From assembly GCA_964609125.1 (NCBI GenBank), contig CAZSQX010000001.1:54459-118458 (forward strand): a stretch of DNA of 64,000 nt, read 5' to 3'. The position numbers and the translations under genes are program-made. Source of the stretch: an uncultured bacterium. GTDB lineage: Bacteria > Eisenbacteria > RBG-16-71-46. Below, in pieces: positions 2,034-21,399 of this stretch (position 1 is its first letter; each line of letters starts with the position of its first letter). Below the pieces are notes generated by a model. It saw only the letters and a program-made list of their open reading frames with translations. It was not told where the DNA came from and did no database searches.

Positions 2034-3625
2034 AGCGGGGCGAGATCGCGCAGCACGTCACGCGCGGGGCGTTCTACCTCGCGGCCGAGAAGACCGCGGC
2101 GCTGGCGTCGGGGATGCTCTACTTCGCGCTCATGCTGCGCTGGCTGGGCCCCACGAACTACGGGATGCTCACGCTCGCGCTCGCCATCACCGGGCTCGCC
2201 ACGATCACGACCGGGAACCTGGAGATGTTCCTGGAGCGCTTCGCCGCGGAGTACCAGGCCCGGGGGCGCTTCGACCTGCTCCGCCGCGCCCACTTGCTGG
2301 CGGTGGGCGTCAAGCTCGGGCTCGGCGCCTTGGCGAGCCTGGCGCTTCTGCTGCTCGCGCCGGCGCTCGCCGTCCAGTTCGACATGCCGCCGCTCGCCGT
2401 CCTGTTGCCCATCCTCGCGCTCACGGTGGCGACCGACGGGCTGGCCACGACCGGCCGCTCGCTGCTCTTCGGCCTGCAGCGCTACGAGTGGGTGAGCGGT
2501 CTCTCGGTCCTCTTCCACCTCCTCAAGACCGTGATGGTCGGACTGCTGTGGTGGAGCCAGCAGGGCCTGGCCTCGCTCGCGGTCGGCCTCGCGGCGCTGG
2601 CGGTCGTGCAGGCGGTGGCGGTCACGGGCGCGGCCTGGACCGTGGCGCGACGCGCGGCCGCAGCCTCGGGCGCGGGCCCCGGCGCCGCCGGTCCGGAGCC
2701 GGGGCCCGGCATGCTGCGGCAGATGCTCGGCTACTGCGTGCCGCTGCTCGGGGCGCGTGCGGCGTTCCTGTCCGGTCAGAACCTGGGCAAGGTCCTGCTC
2801 GCGAAGGTGCTCGACGCCACGCATCTCGGCTACTACACGTTCGCGTTCCAGACCATCGAGCGGTTCGTGGAGCTGGCCTACACGGTGCCCTCATCGCTGC
2901 TGCCCTCGCTCACGCACCTGGTCACGCGCGAGGAGCGCGAGCGGCTGGGCTACGTGTTCGACCAGGCGTTCCGGCTGGTGCAGGTCGTGGCGTGCGCCGT
3001 GGCCTGGACGCTGTTCTCGTTCGCGCCCGAGCTCACGCTGTTCGTCGGGAGCCCGCTGTTCCTGCCCTCCATCGGGATCCTGCACGTCCTGGCGCTGGTG
3101 CCGATCGCGCGCACCGCGCAGCAGCCGCTCACCATGCTGTTCCAGGCCACGCGCCGGCCGGGCCTCGTGCTGGCGCTGTCGCTTCTCAAGCTGGGCGTGG
3201 AGCTGGCGTGCTATCTGGCGATCGTGCCGCGGTTCGGGAGCCTCGGCGCGGCGTGGGCGAACCTGGCGGGCGCGATGGTGTCCTACGTCGCGGCGCTCGG
3301 CTTCGCCGCCGTCGTGCTGCCGGAGACGGCCGCGGCCCGCACCTCGGTGGTGACGCGCGCGCTGCTGCTCGTGCTGCCGACGCTCGGGCTCGCCTGGCTG
3401 CTGCTGCCGGAGGGCGCCCCGAGCGCGGGTTCGCTGCTCGCGCGTCTGCTGCTCGTGCTGCCCGCGTCGATCGCCCTGTTCCCGCTCCAGCTGGTGACCC
3501 GCTACGATCTCGAGAAGCTGTCCGGGCTGAGGCTGCGCATGGCGTTCGCCCGGCGGCTGCGTGACCTGGTCGTGCGGGCGGCGGATCCGCTCGCCCGTCT
3601 GTTCGGGCCCCGGAGGACCGCGTGA
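2030..3625 (+). CDS. wzx: Wzx-type (MOP superfamily) oligosaccharide/polysaccharide flippase
   Basis: GTG at 2030 overlaps the upstream stop (GTGA). The N-terminus YLAAEKTAALASGMLYFALMLRWLGPTNYG is the usual Wzx start. Many hydrophobic helices are visible over about 530 aa. Confidence 0.75.
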   Translation: MKRGEIAQHVTRGAFYLAAEKTAALASGMLYFALMLRWLGPTNYGMLTLALAITGLATITTGNLEMFLERFAAEYQARGRFDLLRRAHLLAVGVKLGLGALASLALLLLAPALAVQFDMPPLAVLLPILALTVATDGLATTGRSLLFGLQRYEWVSGLSVLFHLLKTVMVGLLWWSQQGLASLAVGLAALAVVQAVAVTGAAWTVARRAAAASGAGPGAAGPEPGPGMLRQMLGYCVPLLGARAAFLSGQNLGKVLLAKVLDATHLGYYTFAFQTIERFVELAYTVPSSLLPSLTHLVTREERERLGYVFDQAFRLVQVVACAVAWTLFSFAPELTLFVGSPLFLPSIGILHVLALVPIARTAQQPLTMLFQATRRPGLVLALSLLKLGVELACYLAIVPRFGSLGAAWANLAGAMVSYVAALGFAAVVLPETAAARTSVVTRALLLVLPTLGLAWLLLPEGAPSAGSLLARLLLVLPASIALFPLQLVTRYDLEKLSGLRLRMAFARRLRDLVVRAADPLARLFGPRRTA

Positions 3626-4326
3626 ACCCCGCGCGAGTGCTCGTCGTGGTGCCGGCGCACAACGAGGAGGAGAGCCTCCCCGGGACGCTGGCCGAGGTCC
3701 GCGCCCGCGCGCCGGGAGTGGAAGTGCTCGTCGTGGACGACGGCTCCCGCGACGACACGGCGCGCGTGGCGCGCGAGGCCGGCGTGGCGGTGGTGCGACA
3801 CCCGGTGAATCTGGGGGTCGGCGGCGCGCTCCAGACCGGGTTCCAGTGGGCGGTGGCGCGCGGCTACGACGTGACCGTGCAGCTCGATGCCGACGGCCAG
3901 CACGATCCCGCCTACCTGTCCGCGCTGGTGACGCCTGTGCTCGCGGGCCGCTGCGACGTGTGCATCGGCTCCCGCTTCGTCTCGGCGACCGGCTACCGTG
4001 CGCCGTGGAACCGCCGCCTCGGCATGCTGCTGTTCAGCGGCGTCGTACGCCTGGCGCTGGGGCGGCCGATCTCCGACACGACGTCGGGCTTCCGCGCCTA
4101 CGGCCGCGCGGTCATGCGGGTGTGCCAGCACGACTTCCCGAAGGACTTCCCGGACGCGCCGCTGCTCATCGCGCTCGCCCGCCGCGGCTTCCGCCTCGAC
4201 GAGGTGCCCGTCGTCATGCGCGAACGCCACGCGGGCCGCTCGTTCTACACGCTCGGCAAGCAGCTCTACTACCCGTACAAGAACCTACTCGCGTCGCTGA
4301 TGGCCCTGATCCGCCGGCCGATCTGA
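3622..4326 (+). CDS. GT2 glycosyltransferase, polyprenol-phosphate hexose synthase-like (Dpm1/ArnC/GtrB/CsbB type)
   Basis: GTG at 3622 in GTGA overlap. Motifs VLVVVPAHNEEESL, VLVVDDGS, QLDADGQH and SRF..TSGFRAY are typical of this family. Confidence 0.8.
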   Translation: MNPARVLVVVPAHNEEESLPGTLAEVRARAPGVEVLVVDDGSRDDTARVAREAGVAVVRHPVNLGVGGALQTGFQWAVARGYDVTVQLDADGQHDPAYLSALVTPVLAGRCDVCIGSRFVSATGYRAPWNRRLGMLLFSGVVRLALGRPISDTTSGFRAYGRAVMRVCQHDFPKDFPDAPLLIALARRGFRLDEVPVVMRERHAGRSFYTLGKQLYYPYKNLLASLMALIRRPI

Positions 4327-4357
4327 CCCCGCCGGACCCGCAAGGAGGAGACCCGCC

Positions 4358-4729
4358 GTGTTCCTGTCCCGAACCCAGCTCATCACCGCGCTCGGCGCGG
4401 TGCTGCTCGTGCTGTTCGTGCTCGACCTGGTCCGCCGGCGCCGCCTGTCCGAGGAGTACTCGCTGCTGTGGGTGATCGCCACCACGGTGATCGCCATCCT
4501 CGGCTTCTCGACCCCTCTGTTGACGTGGATCACGGGCGCGCTCGGGTTCTACGGCGAGTCGTCCACCACGTTCGCTTTCGGGCTCGCGTTCTCTCTCGCG
4601 ATGCTGCTCTACCTGTCGCTCAAGCTGTCGCGGCTGGGCTACGAGAACCACGCGCTCACGCGCGAGCTCGCGCTCCTCCGGCACGAGGTGGAGGGGCTGC
4701 GCGCCGACCGGGAGGGCGCCCCACGGTGA
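4358..4729 (+). CDS. small 3-4 TM membrane protein (DUF2304-like), the usual partner of polyprenol-P-sugar GT2s
   Basis: A 123-aa ORF with hydrophobic helices LITALGAVLLVLFVL, WVIATTVIAILGF and AFGLAFSLAMLLYL and a charged C-terminal tail. It sits directly after the GT2. Confidence 0.6.
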   Translation: MFLSRTQLITALGAVLLVLFVLDLVRRRRLSEEYSLLWVIATTVIAILGFSTPLLTWITGALGFYGESSTTFAFGLAFSLAMLLYLSLKLSRLGYENHALTRELALLRHEVEGLRADREGAPR

Positions 4730-5733
4730 CCCGGGTGCTGCAGCTCCTGCTCGGCGTCGCGGTCTCGGCGCTGTGCGTGTGGCTGTCCATGCGGGACGTG
4801 CGCCTCGGCGAGGTGCTGCACGCCCTGCGCGGGGCGAACGCGGTCGGTTTCGCGCTGGCCATGCTCGTCACGCTGGCGGGCTTCTGGCTGCGCGCGCTGC
4901 GCTGGCGCTACTTCATCCAGGCCGGCCGCCGGCTCCGCATCGGCTCGCTGTTCAGCGCCACCATGATCGGGTTCATGGCGAACAACGTGCTGCCGTTCCG
5001 GCTGGGGGAGTTCGTCCGCCCGTGGGCGCTGGCGCGACGCGAGGGGCTGTCCAAGACCACGCTGTTCGCCACCGTCGTGGTCGAGCGCGCGGTGGACATG
5101 CTGACCCTGCTCGGCATTTTCGGGGTGAGCATGCTCGTCCACCCGATCGCCGAGAACACCGAGGCCGGACGGCTGGTGCAGTGGGGCGCCCGGCTGCTCA
5201 TCGCCTTGTGCGTGGGCCTGACCGTGCTGGTGATCGCGGTCGAGCGCAGCCGGCGCCTGGCGCAGGCGGTGCTCGGGCTCGTCACGGCTCCGCTGCCGGG
5301 GGCGGCACGCGAACGGGCGAGTCAGATGTTCGAGCGGTTCCTCGAGGGGCTGGGGCTGTTCCGCGACCTGCGCCGGCTCGCGATCGTGTTCGCGATCTCG
5401 TTCACGATGCTCCTGTGCTTCGCGTTCGCGCTCGCCGTGAGCCTGTGGTCGCTGGACATCCACCTGCCCTGGTACGCCGGGCTCGTCATGCTCGTGATCA
5501 CGTCCATCGGCATCATGGTGCCGGCCGCGCCGGGCTACATCGGCACGCTCAACATCGCCTGCACGGCGGGGCTGGGGCTGTTCGCCGTGGGAAAGGCGCA
5601 GTCCGTGCCGTTCTCGTGGTTCTACTTCTTCAGCCAGTGGCTTCCGATCACCGCGGTCGGGCTGGTGTTCCTGAACCGCGAGGGCCTCACGCTGCGCGCG
5701 CTCGGACAGGCCGGGCGCGGGGAGACCGCTTGA
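4726..5733 (+). CDS. UPF0104 / lysyl-PG-synthase-TM-like 'flippase-like' membrane protein
   Basis: GTG at 4726 in GTGA overlap. The 335-aa protein is multi-TM and of the TIGR00374-like type (FMANNVLPFRLGEF...VVERAVD). Confidence 0.7.
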   Translation: MTRVLQLLLGVAVSALCVWLSMRDVRLGEVLHALRGANAVGFALAMLVTLAGFWLRALRWRYFIQAGRRLRIGSLFSATMIGFMANNVLPFRLGEFVRPWALARREGLSKTTLFATVVVERAVDMLTLLGIFGVSMLVHPIAENTEAGRLVQWGARLLIALCVGLTVLVIAVERSRRLAQAVLGLVTAPLPGAARERASQMFERFLEGLGLFRDLRRLAIVFAISFTMLLCFAFALAVSLWSLDIHLPWYAGLVMLVITSIGIMVPAAPGYIGTLNIACTAGLGLFAVGKAQSVPFSWFYFFSQWLPITAVGLVFLNREGLTLRALGQAGRGETA

Positions 5734-5735
5734 CT

Positions 5736-6959
5736 CTAGCGCCGATGCGCGGCGGCGATGCGCGCGACCGCGGTCACGACGTCGTCCACGTCGCGGTCGG
5801 TCATGCGCGTGAACAGGGGCAGCGAGATCGCGCGCCGGTACGCGTCCTCGGCCACGGGCAGGCCCGTGGAGGGGAGGCGGAGCCGCCCGCGGAAGTACGG
5901 GTGCTGATGGACCGGGATGAAGTGCACGCTGGTTCCGATGTTCTCGGCGCGCAGCTCCTCGATGAACCGCGCCCGGTCGACGCGGAGGCGCTCGAGCTCG
6001 AGCGCGATCGGGTAGAGGTGCCAGGCATGCGTCACCCCGGGCCGGGCGCGCGGCCGCCGCACCTCGGGGACGGAGGCGAGCCCCGCATCGTAGCGCTCGA
6101 CCAGTTCGTTGCGGCGGCGCTGGCCGGCCTCGAACCGCTCGAGTTGCGCGAGCCCGATCGCGGCCAGCAGGTCCGGGAGGTTGTACTTCCAGCCCGCCGC
6201 GGTGACCTCGTAGTACCAGGAGCCGCCGGCCCCGTAGCGCTTCCAGGCGTCGCGATCCATGCCGTGGAGCGACAGGTTCGCGACGCGCTCGGCCAGCGCC
6301 GCGTCGTCGGTCACGAGCGCGCCACCCTCGCCGGTGGTCAGGTTCTTGGTGGCGTAGAACGAGAACGCGGTGGCGTCGGCGAGCGCGCCGGAGCCCACCG
6401 GCAGCCCGCCGCACGCGGCGCCGAGCGCGTGCGCGGCGTCGTTCACGACGCGGATGCCCCGGTCGCGCGTGACCTCTCGCAGCGCCTCGTACGCGCACGG
6501 ATGCCCGGCGTAGTCCACGCCCAGCACGACGCGCGTGCGGGGGGTCACCGCCTCGGCGACACGGCGGGGGTCCAGGCACAGCGTGTCGGGCTCGATGTCC
6601 ACCAGCACCGGCGTCGCGCGCACGTGCTCGATGACGTTGACGGTGGCGACGAACGTGTACGGGGTGGTGATGACCTCGTCGCCGGGTCCCACGCCGAGCG
6701 CCTCGAGCGCCAGGTGGAGCGCCCCCGTCGCGCTGCTCAGCGCCACCCCGTGCCGCGCGTTCGCGAGCGCCGCGATGCGGCGTGCCAGCTCGAACGCGCG
6801 CGGGCCGGTCGTGATCCAGCCCGAGTCGAGCGTCTCCAGGACGAGCTCGCGCTCGCGCGGCCCGAGGTCCGGGACGGTGAGCGGCAGGAACTCGGCGCGC
6901 ACAGGCGTGCCGCCCTGCGAGGCGAGCCGCGCGGTGGAGCCCGTGGAGGTCGGACGCAC
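5736..6959 (-). CDS. DegT/DnrJ/EryC1/StrS PLP-dependent sugar aminotransferase (ArnB/WecE-like)
   Basis: LPLTVPDLGPRERELV start region. PLP-lysine motif SFYATKNLTTGEGG. The start may be GTG at 6959 or the in-frame GTG at 6902. Confidence 0.85.
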   Translation of the reverse strand: MRPTSTGSTARLASQGGTPVRAEFLPLTVPDLGPRERELVLETLDSGWITTGPRAFELARRIAALANARHGVALSSATGALHLALEALGVGPGDEVITTPYTFVATVNVIEHVRATPVLVDIEPDTLCLDPRRVAEAVTPRTRVVLGVDYAGHPCAYEALREVTRDRGIRVVNDAAHALGAACGGLPVGSGALADATAFSFYATKNLTTGEGGALVTDDAALAERVANLSLHGMDRDAWKRYGAGGSWYYEVTAAGWKYNLPDLLAAIGLAQLERFEAGQRRRNELVERYDAGLASVPEVRRPRARPGVTHAWHLYPIALELERLRVDRARFIEELRAENIGTSVHFIPVHQHPYFRGRLRLPSTGLPVAEDAYRRAISLPLFTRMTDRDVDDVVTAVARIAAAHRR

Positions 6960-7024
6960 GCCGCGCAGTCTAAGCCCGCGGCTCCACGCCGCGCCAACCG
7001 CGGTCGCGCGCGACTGAGCCCCGA

Positions 7025-8560
7025 TTGAACCCCCTGCGCCGGAAGTTCACGCGGGATTCCCTCGGCCTCGCGTTCACGCAGTACCTCGTTCGCGCGATGA
7101 GCATGGCGCGCGGCTTCCTCGCCGCGAAGCTGCTCGACCCCACGTCGTTCGGAGCCTGGAACGCGCTCCAGCTCATGATGGACTACGGCGCGCTCGCGCC
7201 GCTCGGCACGCAGCAGGGCCTCGACCAGCTCGTGCCGTCGCGGCTGGTGGAGCAGGACCCGGAACGGGTCGCCCGGCTCAAGCGCGCGGCGCTGTTCAAC
7301 GTGATCCTGCTCACGCTGCTGTTCAGCGCGTTCGGCCTCGGCTGGGCCTCCGTCGGCAGCAGCCGCATGCGGGACTTCTGGAACCTGTCCGGGCTGTCGC
7401 TCGCGATGGCCTGCGTCCTGCTCGTGAACCTCGCCTACGTCGGCACCAGCATCCTGCGATCGCACGGTGACATCGGCGGCCTCAAGCGCTGGTTCGTGCT
7501 GCAGGGCCTGCTCGGCTCGGGGCTCGGGCTGGTCCTCATGCTGTGGTTCGGGCGCTGGGGCCTGCTGTGGGGCTGGTTCGCCGGGTGCCTGGTGGCGTTC
7601 GTGTTCGTGGTCCATCGCGGCCGGCGCGTGATCCCGCTGTGGCCCGCGGCGGCGACCGACTCCCTCGACCTCGTCCAGGTGGGGCTGCCGCTGTACGTGT
7701 TCAGCGCGAGCAGCATCGTGATGCGCAACCTGGACCGCATCGTCGTCCTGCGCTTCCTCGGCACGCAGGCGCTCGGGTACTACGGCCTGTCCGTGAACGT
7801 GCTCACGCTGCTCATGGCGATCCCCGATTCGCTCGCCTACGTGAGCTATCCGCAGCTGGTGAAGCGGTTCAGCGAGGCGGGCGGCGACCCCGCGGCGATC
7901 CGGGAGCGCGTGGACCGGCTCGTGCGCGGCGTGGCGCTCGGGCTGCCTCTGCTCGCCGGGCTGTGCGCGCTGTGGGCGCGCGACCTGGTGCACGCTCTGC
8001 TGCCGCGCTACGACGCCTGCGTGCCGCCTCTGCAGGTGCTCGCGTTCGGCGCCACGGGCCTCGCGCTCAGCGCGTTCGGCTCGATCGTTCTCATGACCGT
8101 CGGCCGGCGCATCATCCTCGTGCCCGCGGCCGTGTTCCTCAGCGCGCTCTCCGGCGGATTCCAGCTGCTGTCCCTGCGCTGGAGCGGCGGGCTCTCCGGC
8201 GTCGCCGGCGCGGCCTCGTTCGCCTACCTCGTGAGCGGAGCAGTGCTCATGTCGCTGGCGTGGTTCGGCCTGGGCCACGCGGTCCCGCGCATGGCGGGCC
8301 TGCTGGCGCGCTGCCTCGCGCCGACCGCGATCGGCGCGCTCGCGGCCTGGGCTTCGGCCCGCTGGCTGCTCCCGGCGGACGCCGGCGGGTTCACGTGGGC
8401 GCTCCTCGCGCGCCTGGTCGCGGCCTCGGGCGTGTTCGCCGCCGGCTACCTCGTGGCCGTGGCCCCGTTCGCGCGCGGGATCGGCTTCCGGGCGCTCGTG
8501 GCGGAGTGGCGGCTCCCGTTCGCGGGCCGCGGCCCGGTTCCCCCCGAGGAGCCGCGATGA
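7025..8560 (+). CDS. wzx: second Wzx-type MOP flippase
   Basis: The N-terminus FTQYLVRAMSMARGFLAAKLLDPTSFG matches the Wzx consensus start. About 12 TM segments. The first in-frame start is TTG at 7025; ATG at 7097 is an alternative. Confidence 0.7.
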   Translation: MNPLRRKFTRDSLGLAFTQYLVRAMSMARGFLAAKLLDPTSFGAWNALQLMMDYGALAPLGTQQGLDQLVPSRLVEQDPERVARLKRAALFNVILLTLLFSAFGLGWASVGSSRMRDFWNLSGLSLAMACVLLVNLAYVGTSILRSHGDIGGLKRWFVLQGLLGSGLGLVLMLWFGRWGLLWGWFAGCLVAFVFVVHRGRRVIPLWPAAATDSLDLVQVGLPLYVFSASSIVMRNLDRIVVLRFLGTQALGYYGLSVNVLTLLMAIPDSLAYVSYPQLVKRFSEAGGDPAAIRERVDRLVRGVALGLPLLAGLCALWARDLVHALLPRYDACVPPLQVLAFGATGLALSAFGSIVLMTVGRRIILVPAAVFLSALSGGFQLLSLRWSGGLSGVAGAASFAYLVSGAVLMSLAWFGLGHAVPRMAGLLARCLAPTAIGALAAWASARWLLPADAGGFTWALLARLVAASGVFAAGYLVAVAPFARGIGFRALVAEWRLPFAGRGPVPPEEPR

Positions 8561-11088
8561 GCGCCGCTCGCCTGGCCGGCGCGCTGCCGCCCGCCGCGGG
8601 GCTCCTCGTCGCGCTCCTGCTCGAGCACGGCGCGCTCGCGGGCTGGCCGGGGCCGCTTCGGCTGGCGCTCGCCTTCGGCGTGCTCGTGCTGCTCCCCGGC
8701 TTCGGCTGGCTGCGGGCGATCGGCGTGCAGCCGCCGGGCGGCTCGGGGCTCGCCGCCGGCTGGGCGCTCGGGCTGGGGCTCGCATGGTGGGGCGTCGGCG
8801 CGCTGCTGACACGCGTCGCGGCGCTCCCGTTCATCGTGCTCGGCCTCGCCGGCGCGCCGTGGGCGGTGCTGCCCTGGCTCGCCGCGGCGGTGGTGGCGCC
8901 GCGGGAGCGGCGGCCGGCCCCGGCGCTGGGGCGCGGCGCGCTCCTGGCCATCGCGCTCGCCGCGTTCTTCGCGTTCGTGCACGTTGCGGGCTCCCCGCCG
9001 CCGCTCACCGCCTACAGCGACTCGCCCGACCACCTCGGCACCATCCGCCGCATGCTCGCGGGCGGCGACGCGTTCCCGGCGGACGCGTTCTTCCGCGACG
9101 CGGGTCGCGCGGGCGTGGACCCGCGCAAGGGTCTCTGGCACCCGGGCGTGGCGGCCTTGTGCGCGCTCGCGCGCGTGGACCCGGTGGACGCCTGGCGCGG
9201 GCTCGCGGCGCTCCTCGCCCCGCTCTTCGTGCTGAATGCGGCCGCGTTCGCGTTCCTGTTGGGCGGCGGGCTCGCGGCCGCGGCGGGGGCGTGGGGACTG
9301 CTGCTCGCCTACGGGGGCGGGCTCGGCACCCAGTACCTGGCCGAGGCGGTGTTCGCCACCAAGCTCGCCGACCAGCTCGCGCTGGCCACGCTCGCGGCGC
9401 TGCTTCAGGACCTCGAGCAGCGCACGGCCCGCACCCGCCTCGCGTTCGTGGGGCTCGCGCTCGGCACGGTGCTCGTGCACGTGTTCGGCGCGATCCAGTT
9501 CGCGATCACGTTCGCGGCGCTGGGGCTCGGCCTGCTGGTGCGCGATCGCGGTGCGTCCCGCCCGCTGGCGCGGCTCGCGGCCAGCTCGCTGGCCGGCGCG
9601 CTCGCGCTGGCGCCGTACCTGGGCTGGCGCGCCCAGCAGGCGTACGCCCCGGTCAACGTCATCCACACCCAGACCCAGGGCATGCTCGAGCTGGCGCCGG
9701 GAGTGAGCATCGTCTCGTTCGGAGCGTGGTGGGACTGGCTCGGTCCGGCGTGGATCCTGTTCCCGCTCTCGCTGCTCGCGTGGCGGCGCGCGTCGGGCTC
9801 GCTCGCCGTGCTCGCGCTGCTCTCGACGACGCTGGCCGTGAGCGTGCTCATGTTCGTCCCGCCCGTGGCGGCGCTGCTCGAGCCGCGGCTCGGCTACCTG
9901 CTCATGCGCCTGCCCTGGCTCCTGCCCGCGTCGGCGGCGGTGGCGTTCCTGGTGGTCGCGATGCGCGACGCGTGGGTATCCGGGCGGCGCGCGTCGGCGG
10001 GGTTCGCGGCGGCGGCGCTCGTAGCCGGGCTCGCGGGCCCGGCCGCGGACGCGGTCCGCGCCTTCGCACCCCGCGGCCCGGCGCCGGCCGCGGGTCCGGC
10101 CAGCGTGTCACGCTGGGCGGACGCGCTGGCGTGGATGGACCGCGAGCTGCCCGAAGGCTCCGTGATCCTGTCCGATCCCGCGACCAGCTACGCCGTGCCC
10201 ATGCTCACGCGCCACTGGGTCACCTGCCTCGCCGACCAGCACAGCTCGCCGAACGACTCGCTCGCGCTCGCGCGCATCCTGGACGCGCGGGACGCGCTCG
10301 ACCCCTGGGCGGACTGGCGGCGCACGGCGGACGTGGTGCGGCGCTGGGGCGCGACCGCGGTCGCGCTGAACGGACGTTTCGAAGAGCCGTTGCAGCTCGA
10401 CTACTGGTCCGCGAGCCGCGAATGGTACGCCGCCGCGCGCGCCCGGCTCGAGCGCGCGCCCGCGGCGTTCGAGCGCGTCCACGAGCGCGACCGGTTCACC
10501 GTGTACGTCATCCACCGCCCCGAGCTGGAGCTGCTCGAGGGCGGCGCCACGCCACGCGCCGTCGTGCGCCCCGCGAACCGCAACGACCGGCCGCGGCCGA
10601 TGGGGTCGGGCCTCCCGGGCCTGGTCGCGTTCCGCCTCGGCGCGACGCAGGCCGCGCGCGGCGACACGCTCGCGGGGCGGATCGAATGGCGCGCCGGGGG
10701 ACGGCTCGATCCCGGCGCCTACCGCGTCTCGGTGCGCTTCGACCGGGCGCTGCCGGCGGGCGTCCCGCGCGCCCCGGCCGCGGTCTCGAAGCCCTGGCGG
10801 AAGCTGGTCGAGCGCCAGCGCGGCGAGCGCTACCGGTTCCGCGCCGACCACCTCCCGACCGGAGGAGCCTATGGCGTGGACCACTGGGCGGTGGATGAGG
10901 TGGTGCTGGACGCGTTCCGGATCGTCGTCCCGCACGACGTGGCCCCGGGTGACTACACCGTGAAGGTGGCCATGACCCGCCAGCCGCACTACCCCAACCT
11001 GCGCCTGCGCGACCTGCTGAGCGACGACGACCTCCTCGACGGCCTCGAGGTGGGCCGGCTCCAGGTCGTGGGCGGGGGAGGACGCTGA
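8557..11088 (+). CDS. large polytopic membrane protein with C-terminal soluble domain; putative GT-C-fold glycosyltransferase/polymerase (YfhO/ArnT-like architecture)
   Basis: ATG at 8557 in ATGA overlap with the wzx stop. About 843 aa: roughly 500 aa of TM helices, then a hydrophilic domain. No stops and a good hydrophobic periodicity. Confidence 0.65.
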   Translation: MSAARLAGALPPAAGLLVALLLEHGALAGWPGPLRLALAFGVLVLLPGFGWLRAIGVQPPGGSGLAAGWALGLGLAWWGVGALLTRVAALPFIVLGLAGAPWAVLPWLAAAVVAPRERRPAPALGRGALLAIALAAFFAFVHVAGSPPPLTAYSDSPDHLGTIRRMLAGGDAFPADAFFRDAGRAGVDPRKGLWHPGVAALCALARVDPVDAWRGLAALLAPLFVLNAAAFAFLLGGGLAAAAGAWGLLLAYGGGLGTQYLAEAVFATKLADQLALATLAALLQDLEQRTARTRLAFVGLALGTVLVHVFGAIQFAITFAALGLGLLVRDRGASRPLARLAASSLAGALALAPYLGWRAQQAYAPVNVIHTQTQGMLELAPGVSIVSFGAWWDWLGPAWILFPLSLLAWRRASGSLAVLALLSTTLAVSVLMFVPPVAALLEPRLGYLLMRLPWLLPASAAVAFLVVAMRDAWVSGRRASAGFAAAALVAGLAGPAADAVRAFAPRGPAPAAGPASVSRWADALAWMDRELPEGSVILSDPATSYAVPMLTRHWVTCLADQHSSPNDSLALARILDARDALDPWADWRRTADVVRRWGATAVALNGRFEEPLQLDYWSASREWYAAARARLERAPAAFERVHERDRFTVYVIHRPELELLEGGATPRAVVRPANRNDRPRPMGSGLPGLVAFRLGATQAARGDTLAGRIEWRAGGRLDPGAYRVSVRFDRALPAGVPRAPAAVSKPWRKLVERQRGERYRFRADHLPTGGAYGVDHWAVDEVVLDAFRIVVPHDVAPGDYTVKVAMTRQPHYPNLRLRDLLSDDDLLDGLEVGRLQVVGGGGR

Positions 11089-13031: not shown

Positions 13032-13034
13032 CGC

Positions 13035-15274: not shown

Positions 15275-15278
15275 GGCC

Positions 15279-15321: not shown

Positions 15322-15332
15322 CCGCTCGAGCC

Positions 15333-16196
15333 CTACAACCACCCCTCCTTCTCGAGGATCTCGCGCATCGTCGTCCACTCGTAGCGCTCGAACAGCCGCT
15401 CGAGCTTGGTCATCACGGTGTGCAGGTTCACGTACGTGATGAACCCGTTCACCGGGTCGAGCGGCAGCCGGCGTGCCTCCGGCGCCACCTCGCGCGGATG
15501 CAGGTAGAGCACGAACGGCCGGTGCCGCAGGATGAAGTCCAGCCCGGCGCGGAACACCCACAGCGGCAGCGCGCGCAGGTAGAACCCGCCACCCACCGGG
15601 AAGCGGACCCCCTGGAACTCGGCGATCGCCACCGGGAACTCCACAAGCTCGCCGCGAGGGTCGTGATCGCGGAGGTCCTCGCGGGACGGCCGGTAGATGC
15701 CCACCGGAGCCCCCGGCGTGCCGTAGAGCTTCACCTTCATCGGAAACACGCTGCTGTCGTAGCGGTATCCCTCGCTCCTCAGCACGTCGAGCGCCCAGGC
15801 GTTCGAGCGGTCGATGCTGAACGTGGGCGCGCGGAAGCCGATGACCGGGAACGAGCCCAGCACGCCCTCGACCGCGGCCCGGAACTCGCGCAGCTCCGCC
15901 CGGAACGAGGCCGGGTCCGCGCGCCACACCGGCCGGTGCGACATGCCGTGGCAGGCCAGCTCGTGCCCCTCGTCCACCATGCGGCGGATGAGCCCGGGGT
16001 GCGCGCGGACCACGTCGCCCAGGACGAAGAACGTGCTCCGCCAACCGTGGCGGGCGAGCAGGTCGAGGATGGCCTCGGTGCCCCGCTCCACGATGCTCTC
16101 CTCGGGCCGGGCGTCGCCCACGCGGTGCAGCTCGCTGTGGTGCCAGTCCTCGATGTCGAACGAGAACGCCGCGCGGTGGGGGAACCTGGGGCTCAC
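15333..16196 (-). CDS. polysaccharide deacetylase, exosortase/PEP-CTERM-locus subfamily-like
   Basis: GTG at 16196 overlaps the upstream stop (GTGA). The N-terminus AAFSFDIEDWHH matches the hallmark start of that subfamily. NodB-like His/Asp residues are present. 287 aa. Confidence 0.8.
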   Translation of the reverse strand: MSPRFPHRAAFSFDIEDWHHSELHRVGDARPEESIVERGTEAILDLLARHGWRSTFFVLGDVVRAHPGLIRRMVDEGHELACHGMSHRPVWRADPASFRAELREFRAAVEGVLGSFPVIGFRAPTFSIDRSNAWALDVLRSEGYRYDSSVFPMKVKLYGTPGAPVGIYRPSREDLRDHDPRGELVEFPVAIAEFQGVRFPVGGGFYLRALPLWVFRAGLDFILRHRPFVLYLHPREVAPEARRLPLDPVNGFITYVNLHTVMTKLERLFERYEWTTMREILEKEGWL

Positions 16197-18244
16197 GGCC
16201 GGCGACGGTACACGCGATGGGTCGGGGTGGCGTAGACGCGCTCGAACCGCGCGCTGTCCGCCTCGAGCGCGGTCCACGGGGCGGCGTCCGGGAAGTCCTC
16301 GATCCGGTAGAGCACGTACACCGGGGCCCCGAGCGCGTCCAGGAGCTCGACATCCCGGTCGAGCCCGGTCGCCGGGCCGAAGAGATCCGCCATCACTTCG
16401 CGACGGCGGGCCAGCTCCGAGACGGAGAACGCCGTGCGCTCGGCGGGGTGCGGCGTGCCGGCCAGCAGCCGGCGGCGTCCCTCCACGAGCAGAACGTCCC
16501 GCGAGCGGTTGTCCACGAACACCGCCCGCGCCGGCGTCGCGCTGCGGACCCAGGCGTACAGATCGCGATCGCCCGGGGCGCGGCGCGTCTCCGGCGCCGC
16601 GGCGGCCGACGGATCCGCCAGGAACCCGCGCAGGAACAGGGCGGAAGGCAGGACGAACGCGACACCCACCGCGAGCGCCGCCCCGATGCGGCCGAGCCGT
16701 GCGCGCCACGCCGCCAGCAACCCCGGCAGGCCGGCCGCACCGAGGATCGCGAGCGGCGCGAACACCTGCCAGACGAACTTCACCTCGTTGGATTCCGGGA
16801 GGTGGACGAAGAGCGCGAAGCCGACCATGGCCGCGGTCCAGGCCACGAGCCACACGCCCGCGACCCGGCCCTCGGCGACCACGCGCCGTACGCCGGCCAT
16901 GGCCGCCCACGCGGCCAGCCCGCAGGCCGTGACCAGCGTCCACGGCATCTCCCACCCGAATCGAAGGTAGTGGTGCTCGAACCCCGACCGGTCCGCCTGC
17001 CAGCCGCGCATCATCATCCGGAAGTAGGGCAGCGTGAGCGCGAGCCCTGCCGCGAGCGCGCCCGCCAGCGCCAGCGCGCGACGCGGATCCGCGAGCTCGC
17101 GCCGGCCCGCGCCGAGCAGCGCCAGGGCCGCGCACGCCGCGATTCCCACGGGCACGGCGGACAGGCCGACGACGCTGTGGAAGAGCATCATGCCTGCCGC
17201 GGCGCACGCCGCCACGAGCAGCCAGCGCCACGCCGGCGGCGAACCCTCGGGGCGCTCCTCCCGGCCCGCGGCCAGCCAGCGGCCGCCTGCCCACAGCGAC
17301 ACCAACAGCAGCAGGTAGGCGTAGCCGAGCGCCGTGCCGATCGTGAACTTGTCCCAGCTGTTCACCATCCAGGCGAACGGCGCGCGGAGCTGGTAGAGGA
17401 CGTCGGTGCGGTCCCAGGCGGCGCCTTCCCAGATGCGCGCCACCTCGGCCGCCCCGCGCACCTCGCCCCGGAACGCGCGCAGGAACCAGAGCGGCCACAG
17501 CAGGAGCGCCCCCGCGTTGAGTCCGGTGAGGAGGAGCGGGAGCGCCGGGCGCGCCGTGCGGTGCTCCCGCCACACGAGCCATGACAGCTGCCAGGCCAGC
17601 CACACCTGTGCGCCGATCCACACGACGTTGGCCGTGGCCATGGTCGTGAATGGGCGTGGATCGGCGCGCAACGAGCTCGCGAGCGCGATGAACAGGTTGT
17701 AGAACCACACGTACGCGAGCGGATGTCCGGCGAGGCGCGGGTCCTCGGGCCACACGCCACGCGTCGCGATCTCCCACACGATCCCGGCGTGAACCCACGT
17801 GTCGCTCCGCACCCGCACCCACGGCGAGGCGAGGAGCGGCAGCGCCACGAACGCGGCCGCCGCGACCGCCCACGCCCACGCCGCGCGCGAGGCCGGCGCG
17901 TCGCCGGGGCCGGCGGCGGGCTCCACGAGCGCGCGCGCCTCCCCGCTCGCGAACAGCAGCCAGCTCCCGACGGCCACCAGCCGGGCCGCGGCCGGAAGCG
18001 GCTGTCCGGACTGGAGCAGGGCCCAGCCGAACACGGACGCGGCGAACGGGGCCAGCACCACGCCCAGCGTCCACCGGGTCGCCGCCGGAGCGCCGGGCAG
18101 GAGGAGCCGGACCCACGCCAGTCCGGGGAACACGCCGAGCCAGACGAAGCCCGCCACGTCGCCGGCCGGCCCCGGCACGAACAGCCCCGCGGCCCCGAGC
18201 GCGAACGTGGCCGCGATCGGCCCGAGCCGGCCCGCGAGCCTCAA
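16193..18244 (-). CDS. large polytopic membrane protein, same architecture as 8557..11088 (putative GT-C-like)
   Basis: In-frame TTG at 18244 forms a TTGA overlap with the GT39 stop. The longer in-frame extension up to 19192 is Arg/Gly-rich junk. About 683 aa, multi-TM plus a C-terminal soluble domain. Confidence 0.6.
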   Translation of the reverse strand: MRLAGRLGPIAATFALGAAGLFVPGPAGDVAGFVWLGVFPGLAWVRLLLPGAPAATRWTLGVVLAPFAASVFGWALLQSGQPLPAAARLVAVGSWLLFASGEARALVEPAAGPGDAPASRAAWAWAVAAAAFVALPLLASPWVRVRSDTWVHAGIVWEIATRGVWPEDPRLAGHPLAYVWFYNLFIALASSLRADPRPFTTMATANVVWIGAQVWLAWQLSWLVWREHRTARPALPLLLTGLNAGALLLWPLWFLRAFRGEVRGAAEVARIWEGAAWDRTDVLYQLRAPFAWMVNSWDKFTIGTALGYAYLLLLVSLWAGGRWLAAGREERPEGSPPAWRWLLVAACAAAGMMLFHSVVGLSAVPVGIAACAALALLGAGRRELADPRRALALAGALAAGLALTLPYFRMMMRGWQADRSGFEHHYLRFGWEMPWTLVTACGLAAWAAMAGVRRVVAEGRVAGVWLVAWTAAMVGFALFVHLPESNEVKFVWQVFAPLAILGAAGLPGLLAAWRARLGRIGAALAVGVAFVLPSALFLRGFLADPSAAAAPETRRAPGDRDLYAWVRSATPARAVFVDNRSRDVLLVEGRRRLLAGTPHPAERTAFSVSELARRREVMADLFGPATGLDRDVELLDALGAPVYVLYRIEDFPDAAPWTALEADSARFERVYATPTHRVYRRRP

Positions 18245-19473
18245 GCTCCGCTCCGCCCCGGACCGTGCGCCGGTCCCGGCGCGAGCAGCGCGGACAGCCT
18301 CGGGAATGCGCGCGGGATCGCGAGCGAGGCGAGCACGATGAGCTGCGGCTCGACCGGGATCCGGTAACGCGTCTGCGAGAAGAAGAACGCGTAGAAGGCC
18401 GCGGTCGCGAGCGCCGCGCCGGCGAGCAGCACCCGGCCGCGGCCGGGTCCCGCCCCGCGCGCGGCGCCCGCGACCGCGAGCAGGAGCACGAGGCTGAACC
18501 ATGCCGCGCCCGCGAGCAGCACCGGCAGCCGGTTGAAGCGGTTCTGCGAGGTGACCCGGTCCGGCAGCGGTTGGAAGAAGTGCAGCAACTCGAACGCGTA
18601 GTCGTGGAGGTAGGCCGCAGGTCGTGAGCGCAGGAGCCCCCACTCGCGGGCGACGAGCGCGCGGGGCGAGAGTCCGACGAACGGCGTGCCGGGGGCGTGG
18701 CGGATCCAGCGCGGGCGCGAGATCACGGGGTCGGTGCGCGCGAAGTGGAGCACGGCCTGCGCCTTGCCCATGAACACGCGGTCGCCGCCCTGCCTGCGCA
18801 GCAGCTGCAGCGTGGGGAGAGCGAGCAGCGCGGTGGTCGCCGTGGTCACCGCCAGCGCGCGCGCGAGCGCCCAGCCGGCGCGCCGGACGCGGGCGAGCAG
18901 CCACAGCGCCACGGCCGTGAGCGGCGCGACGATGACCATGTCCGTGAGCCAGCCCGCCACCACGAGCACGCCGAGGAGCGCGGCTCGGGCGACCCCCGGC
19001 CGCAGCGAGAGGTCCCACGCGACGACCATGATGCCGAGCAGCAGCGTCGAGTAGAGCACGGTGGGGTAGAGGAGTCCCGAGACGAACACCAGCGTCGGCG
19101 TGAGCGCCACGAGCACCGCGGCCGCGGCGCCGGCTGCACGGTTCCCGATCCGCGTCGCGAGGCCCACCGCCAGCGTCATCTGCACGGCGCACAAGCCTAC
19201 CTGGACCAGGCGGGCGAAGCGGTGGTTCTCCTCACCTCCGATCGCGTACGAGAGCGCGAGCCAGAGCGGATAGAGCGGCGCGCGTGGCGAGGCCTCACCC
19301 AGGCTCACGCCGTGCAGGATCCGCAGCGCGATCTGCTCGTACTCCGGAGTGTCGCCGAAGTAGACCCGGTCGCCGAGGCTCAGGACGTGCGCGAGGCGCG
19401 CGGCCAGGCCGATCGCGATCCACGTCCAGGGGGCGCTCCACCACGGCGAACCGGTCGGGCGGGGGACGTTCAC
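18241..19473 (-). CDS. GT-C glycosyltransferase, GT39 / ArnT / PMT-like
   Basis: GTG at 19473 in GTGA overlap. The first-loop motif YFGDTPEYEQIALRIL resembles ArnT DExRYAEI. Multi-TM, 410 aa. Confidence 0.75.
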   Translation of the reverse strand: MNVPRPTGSPWWSAPWTWIAIGLAARLAHVLSLGDRVYFGDTPEYEQIALRILHGVSLGEASPRAPLYPLWLALSYAIGGEENHRFARLVQVGLCAVQMTLAVGLATRIGNRAAGAAAAVLVALTPTLVFVSGLLYPTVLYSTLLLGIMVVAWDLSLRPGVARAALLGVLVVAGWLTDMVIVAPLTAVALWLLARVRRAGWALARALAVTTATTALLALPTLQLLRRQGGDRVFMGKAQAVLHFARTDPVISRPRWIRHAPGTPFVGLSPRALVAREWGLLRSRPAAYLHDYAFELLHFFQPLPDRVTSQNRFNRLPVLLAGAAWFSLVLLLAVAGAARGAGPGRGRVLLAGAALATAAFYAFFFSQTRYRIPVEPQLIVLASLAIPRAFPRLSALLAPGPAHGPGRSGA

Positions 19474-20456
19474 GTGCGCTCCCCCGCCCCCGCCGGCCGC
19501 CGCCCGCGATCGAGCACGAGGGAGGCGGCGACACCGAGCAGGCCCGGGATCAGCGTGACCACGATGAACCACGAGAGCGAGAACACGACGCCGGTCGCCG
19601 CGCCGGCGCCGAGCTCGTGGAACACCGTGGCGCTCACCTGTTCGCGGAGTCCCAGCCCGCCGAGCGCGATGGGTAGGTTGCCGAGAAGCGGCAGGAGCGG
19701 CAGCCCGAGCAGGAGCAGGTGCGACGCCTGCGGCGCGAGGTCCCGGAGCAGGATCCAGGCGGCCGGGATCGTGAGCGCATAGAAGAACGTCCCCCAGGCG
19801 AAGCTCGATGGCCCGAGCCCGCCGCGCAGCATCTCCTGCGAGCGGAGGGACCAGCTTTGGATCGGAGCCGTGAACGTGGGAAGCAGCCGGCTGGCGCCCC
19901 GGTGGAACGCCGGGCTCGCCAGCAGCGACAGGCCTACCACGGTCGCCAGCACGACGAGCACGAAACCCACCAGCAGCGGCCCGCGCCACGCCGGAACGAA
20001 CACGAACCCGGGCACGCACAGGAGCTCGAGGAGGATCACGTCGGCCATGCGGTCCCACACCGCCGAGGTCAGCGTGGCCGAGCGCGGCGCGGACAGGTGC
20101 AGGACGCGGGCGAGCTCGCCGACGCGTCCCGGCGTGAACAGACCGTAGAAAGTGCCAACCAGCGTGAGCCGGTATCCGTCCCACACCGACAACAAGACGC
20201 CGCACCGGCGAAGCAGCAGGGTCCAGCGCAGCGACCGGCCGAGGTAGCCCACGAGCGAGAGCGCGAGACAGACGAGCAGCGTCCGCGGACGGAGGCCGGC
20301 CAGCGCGGCGCGGGCGTCCTCCAGCGGCACCCTCCACGCGAGCAGCACCAGCAGCAGGACCGAGGCGAGGAGCTGCAGGAGCAGGCCGAGGCGGGCCCGG
20401 CTCACGGGGCCCCGGCCGGGCACGCCGGGCTCACTCGGGCCCCCGTCCCGCGCCAC
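19470..20456 (-). CDS. UPF0104 'flippase-like' membrane protein (paralogue of 4726..5733)
   Basis: Multi-TM protein with the same family look (LLQLLASVLLLVLLAWRV...). The start is GTG 20456 (26-nt overlap) or GTG 20423. Confidence 0.65.
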   Translation of the reverse strand: MARDGGPSEPGVPGRGPVSRARLGLLLQLLASVLLLVLLAWRVPLEDARAALAGLRPRTLLVCLALSLVGYLGRSLRWTLLLRRCGVLLSVWDGYRLTLVGTFYGLFTPGRVGELARVLHLSAPRSATLTSAVWDRMADVILLELLCVPGFVFVPAWRGPLLVGFVLVVLATVVGLSLLASPAFHRGASRLLPTFTAPIQSWSLRSQEMLRGGLGPSSFAWGTFFYALTIPAAWILLRDLAPQASHLLLLGLPLLPLLGNLPIALGGLGLREQVSATVFHELGAGAATGVVFSLSWFIVVTLIPGLLGVAASLVLDRGRRPAGAGERT

Positions 20457-21399
20457 CGCGGTCGAGCCGCTGCAGCCGCGAGTTGACCACGAGTTCCTCG
20501 AGCAGCCGGCGGTTCATCGCCGTGAGGTCGGCGAGCACGCCCAGCGCCAGCAGCAGCGTGCCCATCACCGCGAGCGCGCCGGCCACGATGACCGACTGGA
20601 TGTGACCCGTCTGGCCGGGAATCGTGAAGTAGAGCCAGGCGAAGCGCGCGAACAGCACGAGCGCCGCCAGCAGGAAGCCGGCGGCGAGCGTGAAGAAGAA
20701 GCGCAGCGGGCGGTAGAGCAGGTACACGCGCGCCATGGTGCCGAGCGAGCGCGTGACGTAGGAGCCCATGCCGCGGAACAGCCGGGACTCGCGCAGCTTG
20801 CCGTTCACACGGATCGGGACATGCGCGATCGCGATGTTCTTCTGGCTCGCCTGGATCAGCGTCTCGAGCGTGTAGGTGAAGCCGGTGAGCACCGTGAGCC
20901 GGAGCGCGGCTTCGCGGCTGTAGGCGCGGAACCCCGAAGTGGCGTCCGGCACGTCCGAGGCGGACAGCGCGCGGACGACGGCGCTGCCCAGGCGCTGGAG
21001 GAGCTTCTTGAGCCCGGAGAAGTGGGCGATGGACTCGATCGGCCGGCTGCCCACCACCATGTCGGCGCGGCGCTCCAGGATCGGCTGCACGAGCTTCGCG
21101 ATGTCGGCGCCCACGTACTGGTTGTCGGCGTCCGTGTTGACGATGACGTCCGCGCCCATGGCGAGCGCCTCGCGCAGGCCCGTGTCGAAGGCGCGCGCGA
21201 GTCCGCGCCGGGCGGGGAAGCGCACGACGCGGGTCACGCCCTGGCGCCGGGCCGCTTCGCTCGTGGCGTCCGAGCTGCCGTCGTCGATGACGAGCGTCTC
21301 GATGCAGTCGATGCCCGGGATGCTCCGGGGCAGGTCGGCGAGCGTGACCGGCAGCGTCTCCTGCTCGTTGAGGCACGGGATCTGGATGACGAGCTTCAT
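20431..21399 (-). CDS. GT2 polyprenol-phosphate hexose synthase-like with C-terminal TM helices (Dpm1/Ppm1/ArnC type)
   Basis: MKLVIQIPCLNEQETL, LVIDDGSSD, NTDADNQY and TSGFRAYSREA, plus two C-terminal hydrophobic helices. Confidence 0.8.
   Translation of the reverse strand: MKLVIQIPCLNEQETLPVTLADLPRSIPGIDCIETLVIDDGSSDATSEAARRQGVTRVVRFPARRGLARAFDTGLREALAMGADVIVNTDADNQYVGADIAKLVQPILERRADMVVGSRPIESIAHFSGLKKLLQRLGSAVVRALSASDVPDATSGFRAYSREAALRLTVLTGFTYTLETLIQASQKNIAIAHVPIRVNGKLRESRLFRGMGSYVTRSLGTMARVYLLYRPLRFFFTLAAGFLLAALVLFARFAWLYFTIPGQTGHIQSVIVAGALAVMGTLLLALGVLADLTAMNRRLLEELVVNSRLQRLDRGGAGRGPE

Follow-up and report, generated by a model that had tools for sequence, protein, structure and literature searches.

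How polyprenol-phosphate-linked monosaccharides are moved from the cytoplasmic to the periplasmic face of the membrane is a question raised by a 64-kb stretch of DNA from an uncultured member of Candidatus Eisenbacteria (GTDB RBG-16-71-46; assembly GCA_964609125.1, contig CAZSQX010000001.1, positions 54,459 to 118,458), the whole of which is called the window below. Three-component extracytoplasmic glycosylation is well established, as in the Gtr, Arn, CsbB/GtcA/YfhO, GacIJKL, PpgS/Rv3779 and GT136 systems; no polyprenol-phosphate-monosaccharide flippase has been directly demonstrated, with GtrA, ArnE/F, Wzx/MATE-type proteins and Agl23 being candidates only. In the window, two independent syntenic modules place a stand-alone MprF-flippase-like protein of the UPF0104 family between a Dpm1-type synthase of glycosyltransferase (GT) family 2 and a membrane-embedded glycosyltransferase of the GT-C type. 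The reading that we favour, with moderate confidence, is that this locus encodes a Wzx-dependent, undecaprenyl-diphosphate (Und-PP)-linked heteropolysaccharide pathway whose product would be decorated, or partly built, in the periplasm by several three-component systems.

As the window has a guanine plus cytosine (GC) content of ~75%, at which raw lists of open reading frames (ORFs) are unreliable, genes were called by third-position GC. The resulting map matched almost exactly the coordinates given in an earlier, sequence-only reading of this DNA and, together with Pfam, established that the GT2, DUF2304 and UPF0104 genes of Module A and the GT2, UPF0104, 410-aa and 683-aa membrane protein genes of Module B are real and lie where that reading had placed them. 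The encoded proteins were scanned with the Pfam and NCBIfam models, and scores were set against the curated cutoffs. Both modules belong to a sugar-polymer island of ~39 kb (positions ~870-39738), which contains four Dpm1-like GT2s, two UPF0104 proteins and five GT-C membrane proteins. As the same gene orders recur in dozens of independent contigs, the content of the island is not a chance pattern.

Only two Dpm1-like GT2s had been described in the sequence-only reading; both are real, but the count was too low, as four mutually related paralogues are present (28-41% identical, E values of 1e-15 to 1e-32). GT2_A (3622..4326, plus strand; PF00535, E 4e-28) is a soluble Dpm1/PpgS/ArnC-like protein, and GT2_B of Module B (20431..21399, minus strand; PF00535, E 9e-21) is a Dpm1/AglJ/ArnC-like protein with two C-terminal transmembrane (TM) helices, at 232-250 and 270-288; both are candidate polyprenol-phosphate sugar synthases. 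The other two, GT2_C (23398..24072, minus strand; PF00535, E 1e-25) and GT2_D (24328..25095, plus strand; PF00535, E 3e-19), lie on either side of a 255-bp intergenic region and point away from each other. The former is a soluble Dpm1-like protein that, with the ATG at 24072 as its start, is as long as its homologues (224 aa), while the latter is a soluble Dpm1/PpgS-like protein, 37% identical to GT2_A, that heads a unit with a short-chain dehydrogenase/reductase (SDR) and a methyltransferase. This unit is conserved in relatives, including a distant locus (L004; GCA_009612875.1, WBZR01000004.1).

The motifs DDGS, DxDxQ and DxxSGFR are common to the four paralogues and absent from the ordinary GT2_E and GT2_F; GT2_E (33650-34627) is unrelated to the four. 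Within the PDB, GT2_A best matched PfDPMS (1e-13) and ArnC (3e-13), and GT2_B matched PfDPMS (5mlz, 2e-13) followed by ArnC, with the DADGQH (carried by GT2_A) and DADNQY sequences of the island GT2s aligning to DADLQH of PfDPMS. The proposed membership of these proteins in the polyprenol-phosphate Dpm1/ArnC group is thus upheld, as their closest solved relatives are dolichol-phosphate (Dol-P)-mannose synthase and ArnC and the DADxQ motif is common to them. At a finer level, the best NCBIfam match was PpgS for GT2_A (105 bits, with a cutoff of 370), AglJ for GT2_B (94 bits, followed by PpgS with 66, below cutoff), a Dol-P hexose transferase for GT2_C (128 bits) and PpgS for GT2_D (90 bits), with ArnC also among the best-scoring models. 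With best scores of 66-128 bits and equivalog cutoffs of 325-529, none of the four is assigned as an orthologue of a named enzyme by NCBIfam, and scores so far under the cutoffs indicate new subfamily members rather than orthologues of PpgS, AglJ or ArnC. Judging from the group to which they belong, the acceptor of these enzymes would be polyprenol phosphate.

In Module A, a gap of 31 nt separates GT2_A from the gene of a DUF2304 protein with three TM segments (4358..4729, plus strand; PF10066, E 1e-20, 73.9 bits with a cutoff of 25.5), which in turn overlaps by 4 nt the gene of UPF0104_A (4726..5733, plus strand; 335 aa). DUF2304 is the family of GacJ and Rv3632. In complex with GacJ, the GlcNAc-P-Und (undecaprenyl phosphate N-acetylglucosamine) synthase GacI is strongly stimulated, and PpgS is stimulated by Rv3632 in the same way. 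By family assignment, GT2_A and its neighbour are a GacI/GacJ-type pair, and the DUF2304 protein is, by analogy, a candidate activating or anchoring subunit of GT2_A. UPF0104_A (PF03706/LPG_synthase_TM, 168.7 bits with a cutoff of 33.4; TIGR00374, 85.4 with 43.2), which is PplT-like, and UPF0104_B of Module B (19470..20456, minus strand; 328 aa; PF03706, 109.6 bits with 33.4; TIGR00374, 44.8 with 43.2) are both stand-alone MprF-flippase-like proteins of a family known to be widespread. MprF proper was considered for both and rejected, since PF03706 is their sole domain and the bifunc_MprF model gave 19 bits with a cutoff of 600. From family and position, UPF0104_A is a candidate for flipping the product of GT2_A and UPF0104_B a candidate flippase of Module B.

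The Module A operon begins with a type I phosphodiesterase/alkaline-phosphatase-superfamily protein (870..2033, plus strand; Phosphodiest, E 1e-6), whose gene overlaps by 4 nt that of WzxA (2030..3625, plus strand; Polysacc_synt, E 9e-17), a MOP/Wzx-family flippase encoded directly upstream of GT2_A and joined to it by another 4-nt overlap. A second MOP/Wzx-family flippase, WzxB (7025..8560, plus strand; Polysacc_synt_3, E 3e-14), is encoded further downstream and overlaps by 4 nt the gene of M843, one of the five GT-C proteins. This arrangement is conserved in 80 metagenome loci, in the order Phosphodiest-WzxA-GT2_A-DUF2304-UPF0104_A-(DegT)-WzxB-[M683-like]-M843. DUF2304 directly precedes UPF0104_A in 57 of 58 loci, a DegT gene is conserved after UPF0104_A in 38, and the GT2-DUF2304 order is found in at least 34 of 44, the tallies of GT2_A in metagenome loci being lower bounds. 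The GT2, DUF2304 and UPF0104 genes of Module A are conserved, and no GT-C gene is adjacent to them in the window. In the relatives, a DUF6541-like GT-C lies at most 6.5 kb downstream of UPF0104_A (15 of 15 loci); three loci have it as the very next gene, as does the P0211 contig. On this synteny, M843 is most likely the GT-C partner of Module A.

Which protein would flip the product of GT2_A depends on how the neighbouring Wzx gene is understood. GacK is a Wzx-type protein and GacL a GT-C, and the position of WzxA resembles, by analogy, that of GacK beside GacI/GacJ: translational coupling links WzxA to GT2_A, and the gene keeps its place upstream of GT2_A and DUF2304 in other loci. Additionally, a part for MATE/Wzx-type flippases has been suggested in other three-component systems, as with the MATE-family flippase of GT136; an E. 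coli UPF0104 protein has been proposed as a general phospholipid translocator; and HexF is dispensable for the production of aminohexosyl-hexosyldiradylglycerol (HNHDRG). The three-component logic could then be right with the Wzx proteins flipping the donors, and UPF0104 would serve in lipid redistribution (of carrier lipid or phospholipid) or as a GT2/GT-C scaffold. We consider this unlikely, as the Module B operon contains no Wzx and yet, in 25 of 30 loci, retains UPF0104 between its GT2 and its GT-C. Furthermore, one Wzx or more must be available in the island for the Und-PP repeat unit expected from its initiating transferase and GT4s, and in archaeal AglD a GT2 is fused directly to UPF0104.

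Module B provides the case without Wzx. Start/stop overlaps join GT2_B, UPF0104_B, M410 (18241..19473, minus strand; 410 aa), M683 (16193..18244, minus strand; 683 aa) and a polysaccharide deacetylase (15333..16196, minus strand) into one operon. M410, the GT-C of the triad, is a small PMT_2-type protein of the GT39/ArnT superfamily. Its profile was scanned through one genome per GTDB species, yielding 39 loci, nearly all from metagenome-assembled genomes (MAGs) of Candidatus Eisenbacteria; as the patterns used for genome-wide searching favour close relatives, the triad is probably spread more widely among taxa than these loci show. The order GT2, UPF0104, M410 was observed in 25 of the 30 loci with enough upstream DNA, and UPF0104 lies immediately upstream of M410 in 25 of 32. 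Downstream, a homologue of M683 comes next in 21 of 27 loci, followed by the deacetylase in 18 of 27. The three-component logic put forward earlier is backed by this triad synteny and by that of Module A. Exceptions to the triad order are paralogous M410-like genes in other contexts. Second M410-like PMT_2 genes (40-43% identity) were seen in four loci of the same Eisenbacteria MAGs (L024, L029, L031 and L034), with no UPF0104, GT2_B or M683 next to them. Outside Eisenbacteria, in the MAGs of two Cytophagia and of one unclassified bacterium (L041, L042 and L043), a GT2_B-like gene (142-148 bits) comes after a distant PMT_2-like gene, and in L041 and L043 a weak UPF0104 match (31-35 bits) comes after the GT2, giving the same components in a different order.

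The distant locus L004 separates the parts of this operon. It keeps M683 with the deacetylase, and the GT4-GT4-AsnB-M843 block, and lacks GT2_B, UPF0104 and M410; at its positions 4798-9897, genes for Wzy_C, AsnB, Acetyltransf_6 and hexapeptide acetyltransferase proteins replace the GT2_C-AsnB-GT2_B-UPF0104-M410 genes of the window. Consequently, the GT2-UPF0104-M410 triad is an accessory insert beside an older core, and, of the earlier assignment of M683 to Module B, the operon position is real while its standing as an intrinsic member of the triad is not sustained. The deacetylase, encoded by the last gene of Module B, combines PF01522 and DUF3473 (PF11959) and is XrtA-system deacetylase-like (TIGR03006, 229 bits with a cutoff of 276). 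As it has neither a signal peptide nor a TM helix, it is cytoplasmic. Between the deacetylase and the GT4s, two relatives encode a 514-aa protein with no Pfam match and a nitroreductase (L001 11934-14226 and L002 9389-11681), which the window lacks, with 58 nt only between 15274 and 15333. The 514-aa protein was considered as a missing Wzy and rejected, being soluble with one hydrophobic segment.

The presence of the deacetylase raises a different possibility for Module B. The only stand-alone UPF0104 operons that have been studied experimentally combine a glycosyltransferase, a deacetylase and UPF0104 and yield glucosaminyl-phosphatidylglycerol and HNHDRG; all three types of component occur in the Module B operon, and a context of UPF0104, deacetylase and glycosyltransferase was also described by Makarova et al. 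UPF0104_B could then act with GT2_B and the deacetylase, and perhaps UPF0104_A with GT2_A, to make and flip a de-N-acetylated hexosamine-glycerolipid that alters membrane charge, with the GT-C proteins serving the polysaccharide independently. This route seems quite improbable to us. While GpgS is a GT4 and HexS a GT-B enzyme like the monogalactosyldiacylglycerol synthases, GT2_B is a GT-A enzyme of the Dpm1/ArnC type, and every one of its closest characterised relatives acts on polyprenol or dolichol phosphate. Similarly, GpgD belongs to COG3233, unlike the PF01522 plus DUF3473 enzyme of the island, which, as L004 indicates, tracks M683 rather than UPF0104. Lastly, a GT-C is found directly downstream of UPF0104_B in 25 of 30 loci.

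Five GT-C-like proteins had been counted in the locus, and this number holds, with evidence that is graded by protein. M843 (8557..11088, plus strand) is a DUF6541-like GT-C with a TM domain of ~500 aa, a periplasmic domain and a C-terminal beta-sandwich-like domain. M683 belongs to an unannotated GT-C family; its catalytic-loop motif, RSD148xWVH152, is preceded by an N-terminal helical extension, and its C-terminal globular domain is AglB-like. M580 (28225..29922, plus strand; start at 28180 or 28225) is a PMT_2-type GT-C whose direct match is marginal (26.6 bits with a cutoff of 26.1), and M524 (37051..38625, plus strand; start at 37051 or 37177) is AftB-like. M580 is the only one with a direct family match, as M843, M683, M410 and M524 have no Pfam or NCBIfam match of their own, and the remaining assignments come from relatives and from fold. 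About half of 93 M410 homologues carry PMT_2, which is matched by 32 of 34 individually scanned members (best E 2.8e-13), and some are named as GT39/ArnT family in Candidatus Eisenbacteria MAGs. The earlier description of M410 as GT39/ArnT-like is consequently sound at superfamily level only, from the PMT_2 matches of its family; a profile search of PDB sequences with M410 found no ArnT or PMT. Among relatives of M843, DUF6541 is matched by 14 of 45 (best E 5.7e-9) and an NPCBM_assoc-like C-terminal domain is present in 6 of 45. Neither M843 nor M683 matches DUF6541 (PF20176) itself, although one distant M683 relative does; a literature search on DUF6541 found nothing. M580 also has weak NCBIfam matches to MT1671 and to TIGR03663, Agl23 (36.8 bits with a cutoff of 126). 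As purified archaeal Agl23 has been reported to translocate lipid-linked oligosaccharide in vitro, some PMT_2-like proteins may serve flipping rather than transfer.

Relationships among the five emerge only with hhalign, pairwise BLAST having found no similarity between them. The M843 and M683 families align over 581 columns (97.4% probability, E 1e-11), with DSPDH of the former placed on SDxWVH of the latter, and M843 is, on this profile evidence, a remote paralogue of M683. The LWIDEQF loop of M580, which follows TM1, aligns with the M410 (91%) and M524 (93%) families, whereas profile comparison shows no relation between the M410 and M683 families. Two GT-C lineages result, one PMT_2-like (M410, M524 and M580) and one DUF6541-like (M683 and M843). 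Acidic loop residues had been predicted for such enzymes and are conserved, in the loop after TM1 or its equivalent, in all five proteins, where they would face the periplasm: D41 and Y45 of GDTxEY are invariant in M410, D71 in M524 (within an invariant EDAYITFRY loop after TM1), D148 in M683, and D155, D158 and H159 in M843; in M580, the D-E pair of LWIDEQ aligns to these loops. In M683 and M843 the conserved aspartate comes after an extra N-terminal helical bundle, and M683 additionally has conserved C-terminal residues (W565, R591 and R614). Searches of PDB sequences, both with single sequences and with profiles, gave nothing useful for M410 and M580; the GT-C and UPF0104 families are too divergent for such searches, and fold and profile-profile methods are needed. 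Fold comparison, which covered M683 and M524, showed GT-C(A), with no Wzy, WaaL or transporter fold among the top matches; for M524, the structure comparison gave ALG12 (22.7), Pmt4 (22.0) and AftB (21.9). Wzy polymerases and O-antigen ligases were considered for the island membrane proteins and rejected, as no Wzy_C-type hidden Markov model match and no GT-C(B)/SEDS-like fold was found.

A fold-level similarity of M683 to AglB-type oligosaccharyltransferases is present, which is consistent with M683 and M843 acting as en-bloc transferases (oligosaccharyltransferase-, ligase- or polymerase-like) on Und-PP-oligosaccharides flipped by WzxA or WzxB, so that they would fill the role of the missing Wzy or ligase. 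We regard this as rather unlikely, because there is no STT3 match and no WWDYG motif. Membership of M683 in the STT3/AglB/PglB group (GT66) was itself rejected, on the lack of an STT3 match in Pfam and of a WWD motif after the last TM helix.

Taken in order, the steps of the favoured pathway would be as follows. The initiating transferase, the GT4s and further cytoplasmic enzymes would make an Und-PP-linked heteropolysaccharide unit for export by Wzx, while the four Dpm1/PpgS/ArnC-type GT2s would load single sugars onto polyprenol phosphate at the cytoplasmic face. The lipid-linked sugars would then be moved to the periplasmic face, with UPF0104 as the candidate translocator, and the five GT-C(A) enzymes would pass them to the exported glycan or to another envelope acceptor. 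In the first unit, GT2_A with its GacJ-like DUF2304 partner would feed UPF0104_A and/or WzxA and, through them, M843. In the second, TM-anchored GT2_B would feed UPF0104_B and then M410, beside the older pair of M683 and the cytoplasmic deacetylase, which, by analogy with ArnD, may de-N-acetylate a lipid-linked N-acetylhexosamine before export. GT2_C and GT2_D probably supply M683, M580 and M524. The pairings of GT2s with GT-C enzymes, the identities of the sugars and their acceptors are proposals of the same conditional kind. Periplasmic polymerisation, which had also been suggested, is pure speculation.

Several points weigh against this scheme. The GT2 matches to NCBIfam equivalog models all fall far below cutoff, so that neither the sugar nor the lipid acceptor is defined by them, and single-sequence and profile searches of PDB sequences found no sequence-level match of UPF0104_A to the solved MprF structures. 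UPF0104_A may not be the donor flippase, as a Wzx gene adjoins GT2_A and DUF2304 just as GacK does in GacIJK, and no GT-C directly adjoins Module A in the window. In L004, M683 and the deacetylase persist in the absence of the triad. The characterised stand-alone UPF0104 systems, GpgSDF and HexSDF, act on glycerolipids and not on polyprenol phosphates, and for GpgF and HexF flipping has itself yet to be proven. The 64-kb window yielded no Wzy-family gene, chain-length regulator or exporter, so the pathway for the acceptor polymer is incomplete as seen. Finally, the proposed function is read from gene families and synteny. A bolder version would make UPF0104 the dedicated polyprenol-phosphate-sugar flippases of a widespread bacterial three-component class, and the island glycan a Wzy-less one largely built in the periplasm from four donors by five GT-C enzymes, with M683 and M843 polymerising or acting en bloc, which would bring a logic like that of the mycobacterial cell wall to a candidate phylum; we hold it to be doubtful.

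How do the modules compare with the systems already known? The closest counterparts of Module A are GacI/GacJ/GacK/GacL of S. pyogenes and PpgS/Rv3632/Rv3779 of M. tuberculosis, which share with it a soluble Dpm1-like GT2, a 3-TM DUF2304 protein, a presumed final GT-C and, in the case of GacK, an adjacent Wzx-type gene. By contrast, Module A has an additional UPF0104 after DUF2304, and M843 is DUF6541-like, lies three genes away and showed no relation to GacL or Rv3779 in the tests made. For Module B, the nearest match is archaeal: Makarova et al. (2015) described a neighbourhood of UPF0104, a PMT/STT3-like protein and an AglD-like GT2 (arCOG00899/00563/00897), predicted a flippase and noted GT2-UPF0104 fusions (AglD). 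Module B likewise combines a Dpm1/AglJ/AglD-like GT2, UPF0104 and a PMT_2-like GT-C, and their second context, with a polysaccharide deacetylase, also matches. The island differs in being bacterial, with unfused genes and the extra GT-C M683, and in the embedding of the module in an exopolysaccharide (EPS)-type island; the role of UPF0104 in archaea is a prediction that has not been confirmed experimentally. The neighbourhood of UPF0104, GT2 and PMT/STT3-like proteins has thus been known from archaea since 2015, and what is new here is its strongly syntenic bacterial versions, a GacI/GacJ-type pair that has been joined by UPF0104, two confidently modelled, uncharacterised GT-C families, and the unusual density of four synthases and five GT-C proteins in a single island.

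Other systems are more remote. In Gtr, CsbB/GtcA/YfhO and GT136, a lipid-phosphate-sugar synthase and a flippase likewise serve a GT-C that acts after export, but the flippase slot of the island is occupied by UPF0104 and/or Wzx, and its four synthases and five GT-Cs are clustered. Gtr or CsbB-YfhO membership was rejected, as no GtrA/GtcA, SMR or YfhO match was found among the island proteins. GpgSDF of P. aeruginosa and HexSDF of C. difficile share with Module B an operon of glycosyltransferase, deacetylase and stand-alone UPF0104; they differ in using GT-B synthases on phosphatidylglycerol or glycosyl-diradylglycerol with no GT-C partner, whereas Module B has a Dpm1-type GT-A and an adjacent GT-C. 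Compared with mycobacterial AftB (GT89), the window has no genes of the decaprenylphosphoryl-arabinose pathway (UbiA-type decaprenylphosphoryl-phosphoribose synthase, DprE1/E2), and donors would come from the GT2 synthases. The order of Module B also recalls Arn, with an anchored ArnC-like GT2, a cytoplasmic NodB-family deacetylase, a translocator and a GT-C of the ArnT/PMT_2 superfamily; ArnD also belongs to the polysaccharide-deacetylase family. Unlike in Arn, there is no ArnA, UPF0104 stands in place of the small ArnE/F, and nothing in the island points to lipid A as acceptor.

The sugar chemistry likewise gives no support to the Arn-like amino-pentose branch that the sequence-only reading had considered plausible. 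The SDR (25115-26083, plus strand, from Pfam and NCBIfam) is 4,6-dehydratase/epimerase-like, with scores of 181 bits for LegB and 178 for RmlB as opposed to 78 for UXS and 57 for ArnA, and no formyltransferase was found among the island proteins in the Pfam and NCBIfam scans. The DegT-family sugar aminotransferase (5736..6902, minus strand; PF01041, E 4e-118) is tied between ArnB (363 bits with a cutoff of 631) and PseC (350 with 423.5), both below cutoff. The methyltransferase encoded after the SDR (26080-26994, plus strand; Pfam) is dependent on S-adenosylmethionine.

The cytoplasmic part of the island comprises an initiating polyprenyl glycosylphosphotransferase, six GT4s, one ordinary GT2, the two Wzx proteins, a Ugd-like dehydrogenase, two AsnB-type amidotransferases, the aminotransferase and the methyltransferase. 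The initiating transferase (Bac_transf, 27410..28333 with a start at 27143 or 27410, plus strand; PF02397, E 5e-67) passes the EPS_sugtrans model (TIGR03025, 300 bits with a cutoff of 295.55). Two GT4s (13035-14138 and 14153-15274, plus strand; Pfam) are syntenic with M843 and with the first AsnB-like glutamine amidotransferase (11091..13031, plus strand; Asn_synthase, E 3e-98; TIGR03108, 593 bits with a cutoff of 817); the second AsnB homologue lies at 21467..23392 on the minus strand (Asn_synthase, E 7e-104; TIGR03108, 591 bits, below cutoff). By sequence, both resemble the amidotransferases of XrtA/PEP-CTERM EPS systems. Repeat-unit assembly would be completed by the genes at 29982..36983 (plus strand; Pfam/NCBIfam), which encode, in order, the Ugd-like nucleotide-sugar dehydrogenase, which passes the generic NDP-sugar dehydrogenase model, two GT4s, GT2_E and two further GT4s. 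The island ends with a mannose-1-phosphate guanylyltransferase-like NTP transferase (38677..39738, plus strand; Pfam).

Beyond it, a Pro/Ala/Arg-rich low-complexity ORF (39504-40691, plus strand; 395 aa) with a weak coding signal, no Pfam match and a short structured-looking C-terminal segment is a candidate gene only. Glycogen and sugar-nucleotide genes flank the island at 40688-44563 and 51046-53076, the encoded products including an NTP_transf_4/hexapeptide protein, a GalT-like protein, glycogen synthase (Glyco_transf_5) and a CBM48/alpha-amylase-family enzyme. The protein encoded at 49591-51042 on the plus strand matches DUF4301 strongly (488.6 bits), and the minus strand at 56132-60717 carries the genes of two PilT/T2SSE-type ATPases in tandem and, after them, that of a HEAT-repeat Ser/Thr protein kinase of 798 aa. 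At 61679-64000 (plus strand), a protein of more than 770 aa continues past the end of the window; its N-terminal PIG-L domain (GlcNAc-PI de-N-acetylase family) makes it another sugar deacetylase-type enzyme, outside the island.

With a Wzx alongside one module and none in the other, the locus allows a clean comparison that bears on UPF0104 as a translocator of lipid-linked sugars. It also defines two uncharacterised GT-C families with candidate catalytic residues, that of M683, for which there is no Pfam model, and the DUF6541-like family of M843. It further shows an uncultured phylum, Candidatus Eisenbacteria, committed to an envelope glycan pathway that is unusually rich in GT-C enzymes. If the GT-C proteins carried out ordinary side-chain decoration, the value of these observations would lie mainly in annotation.

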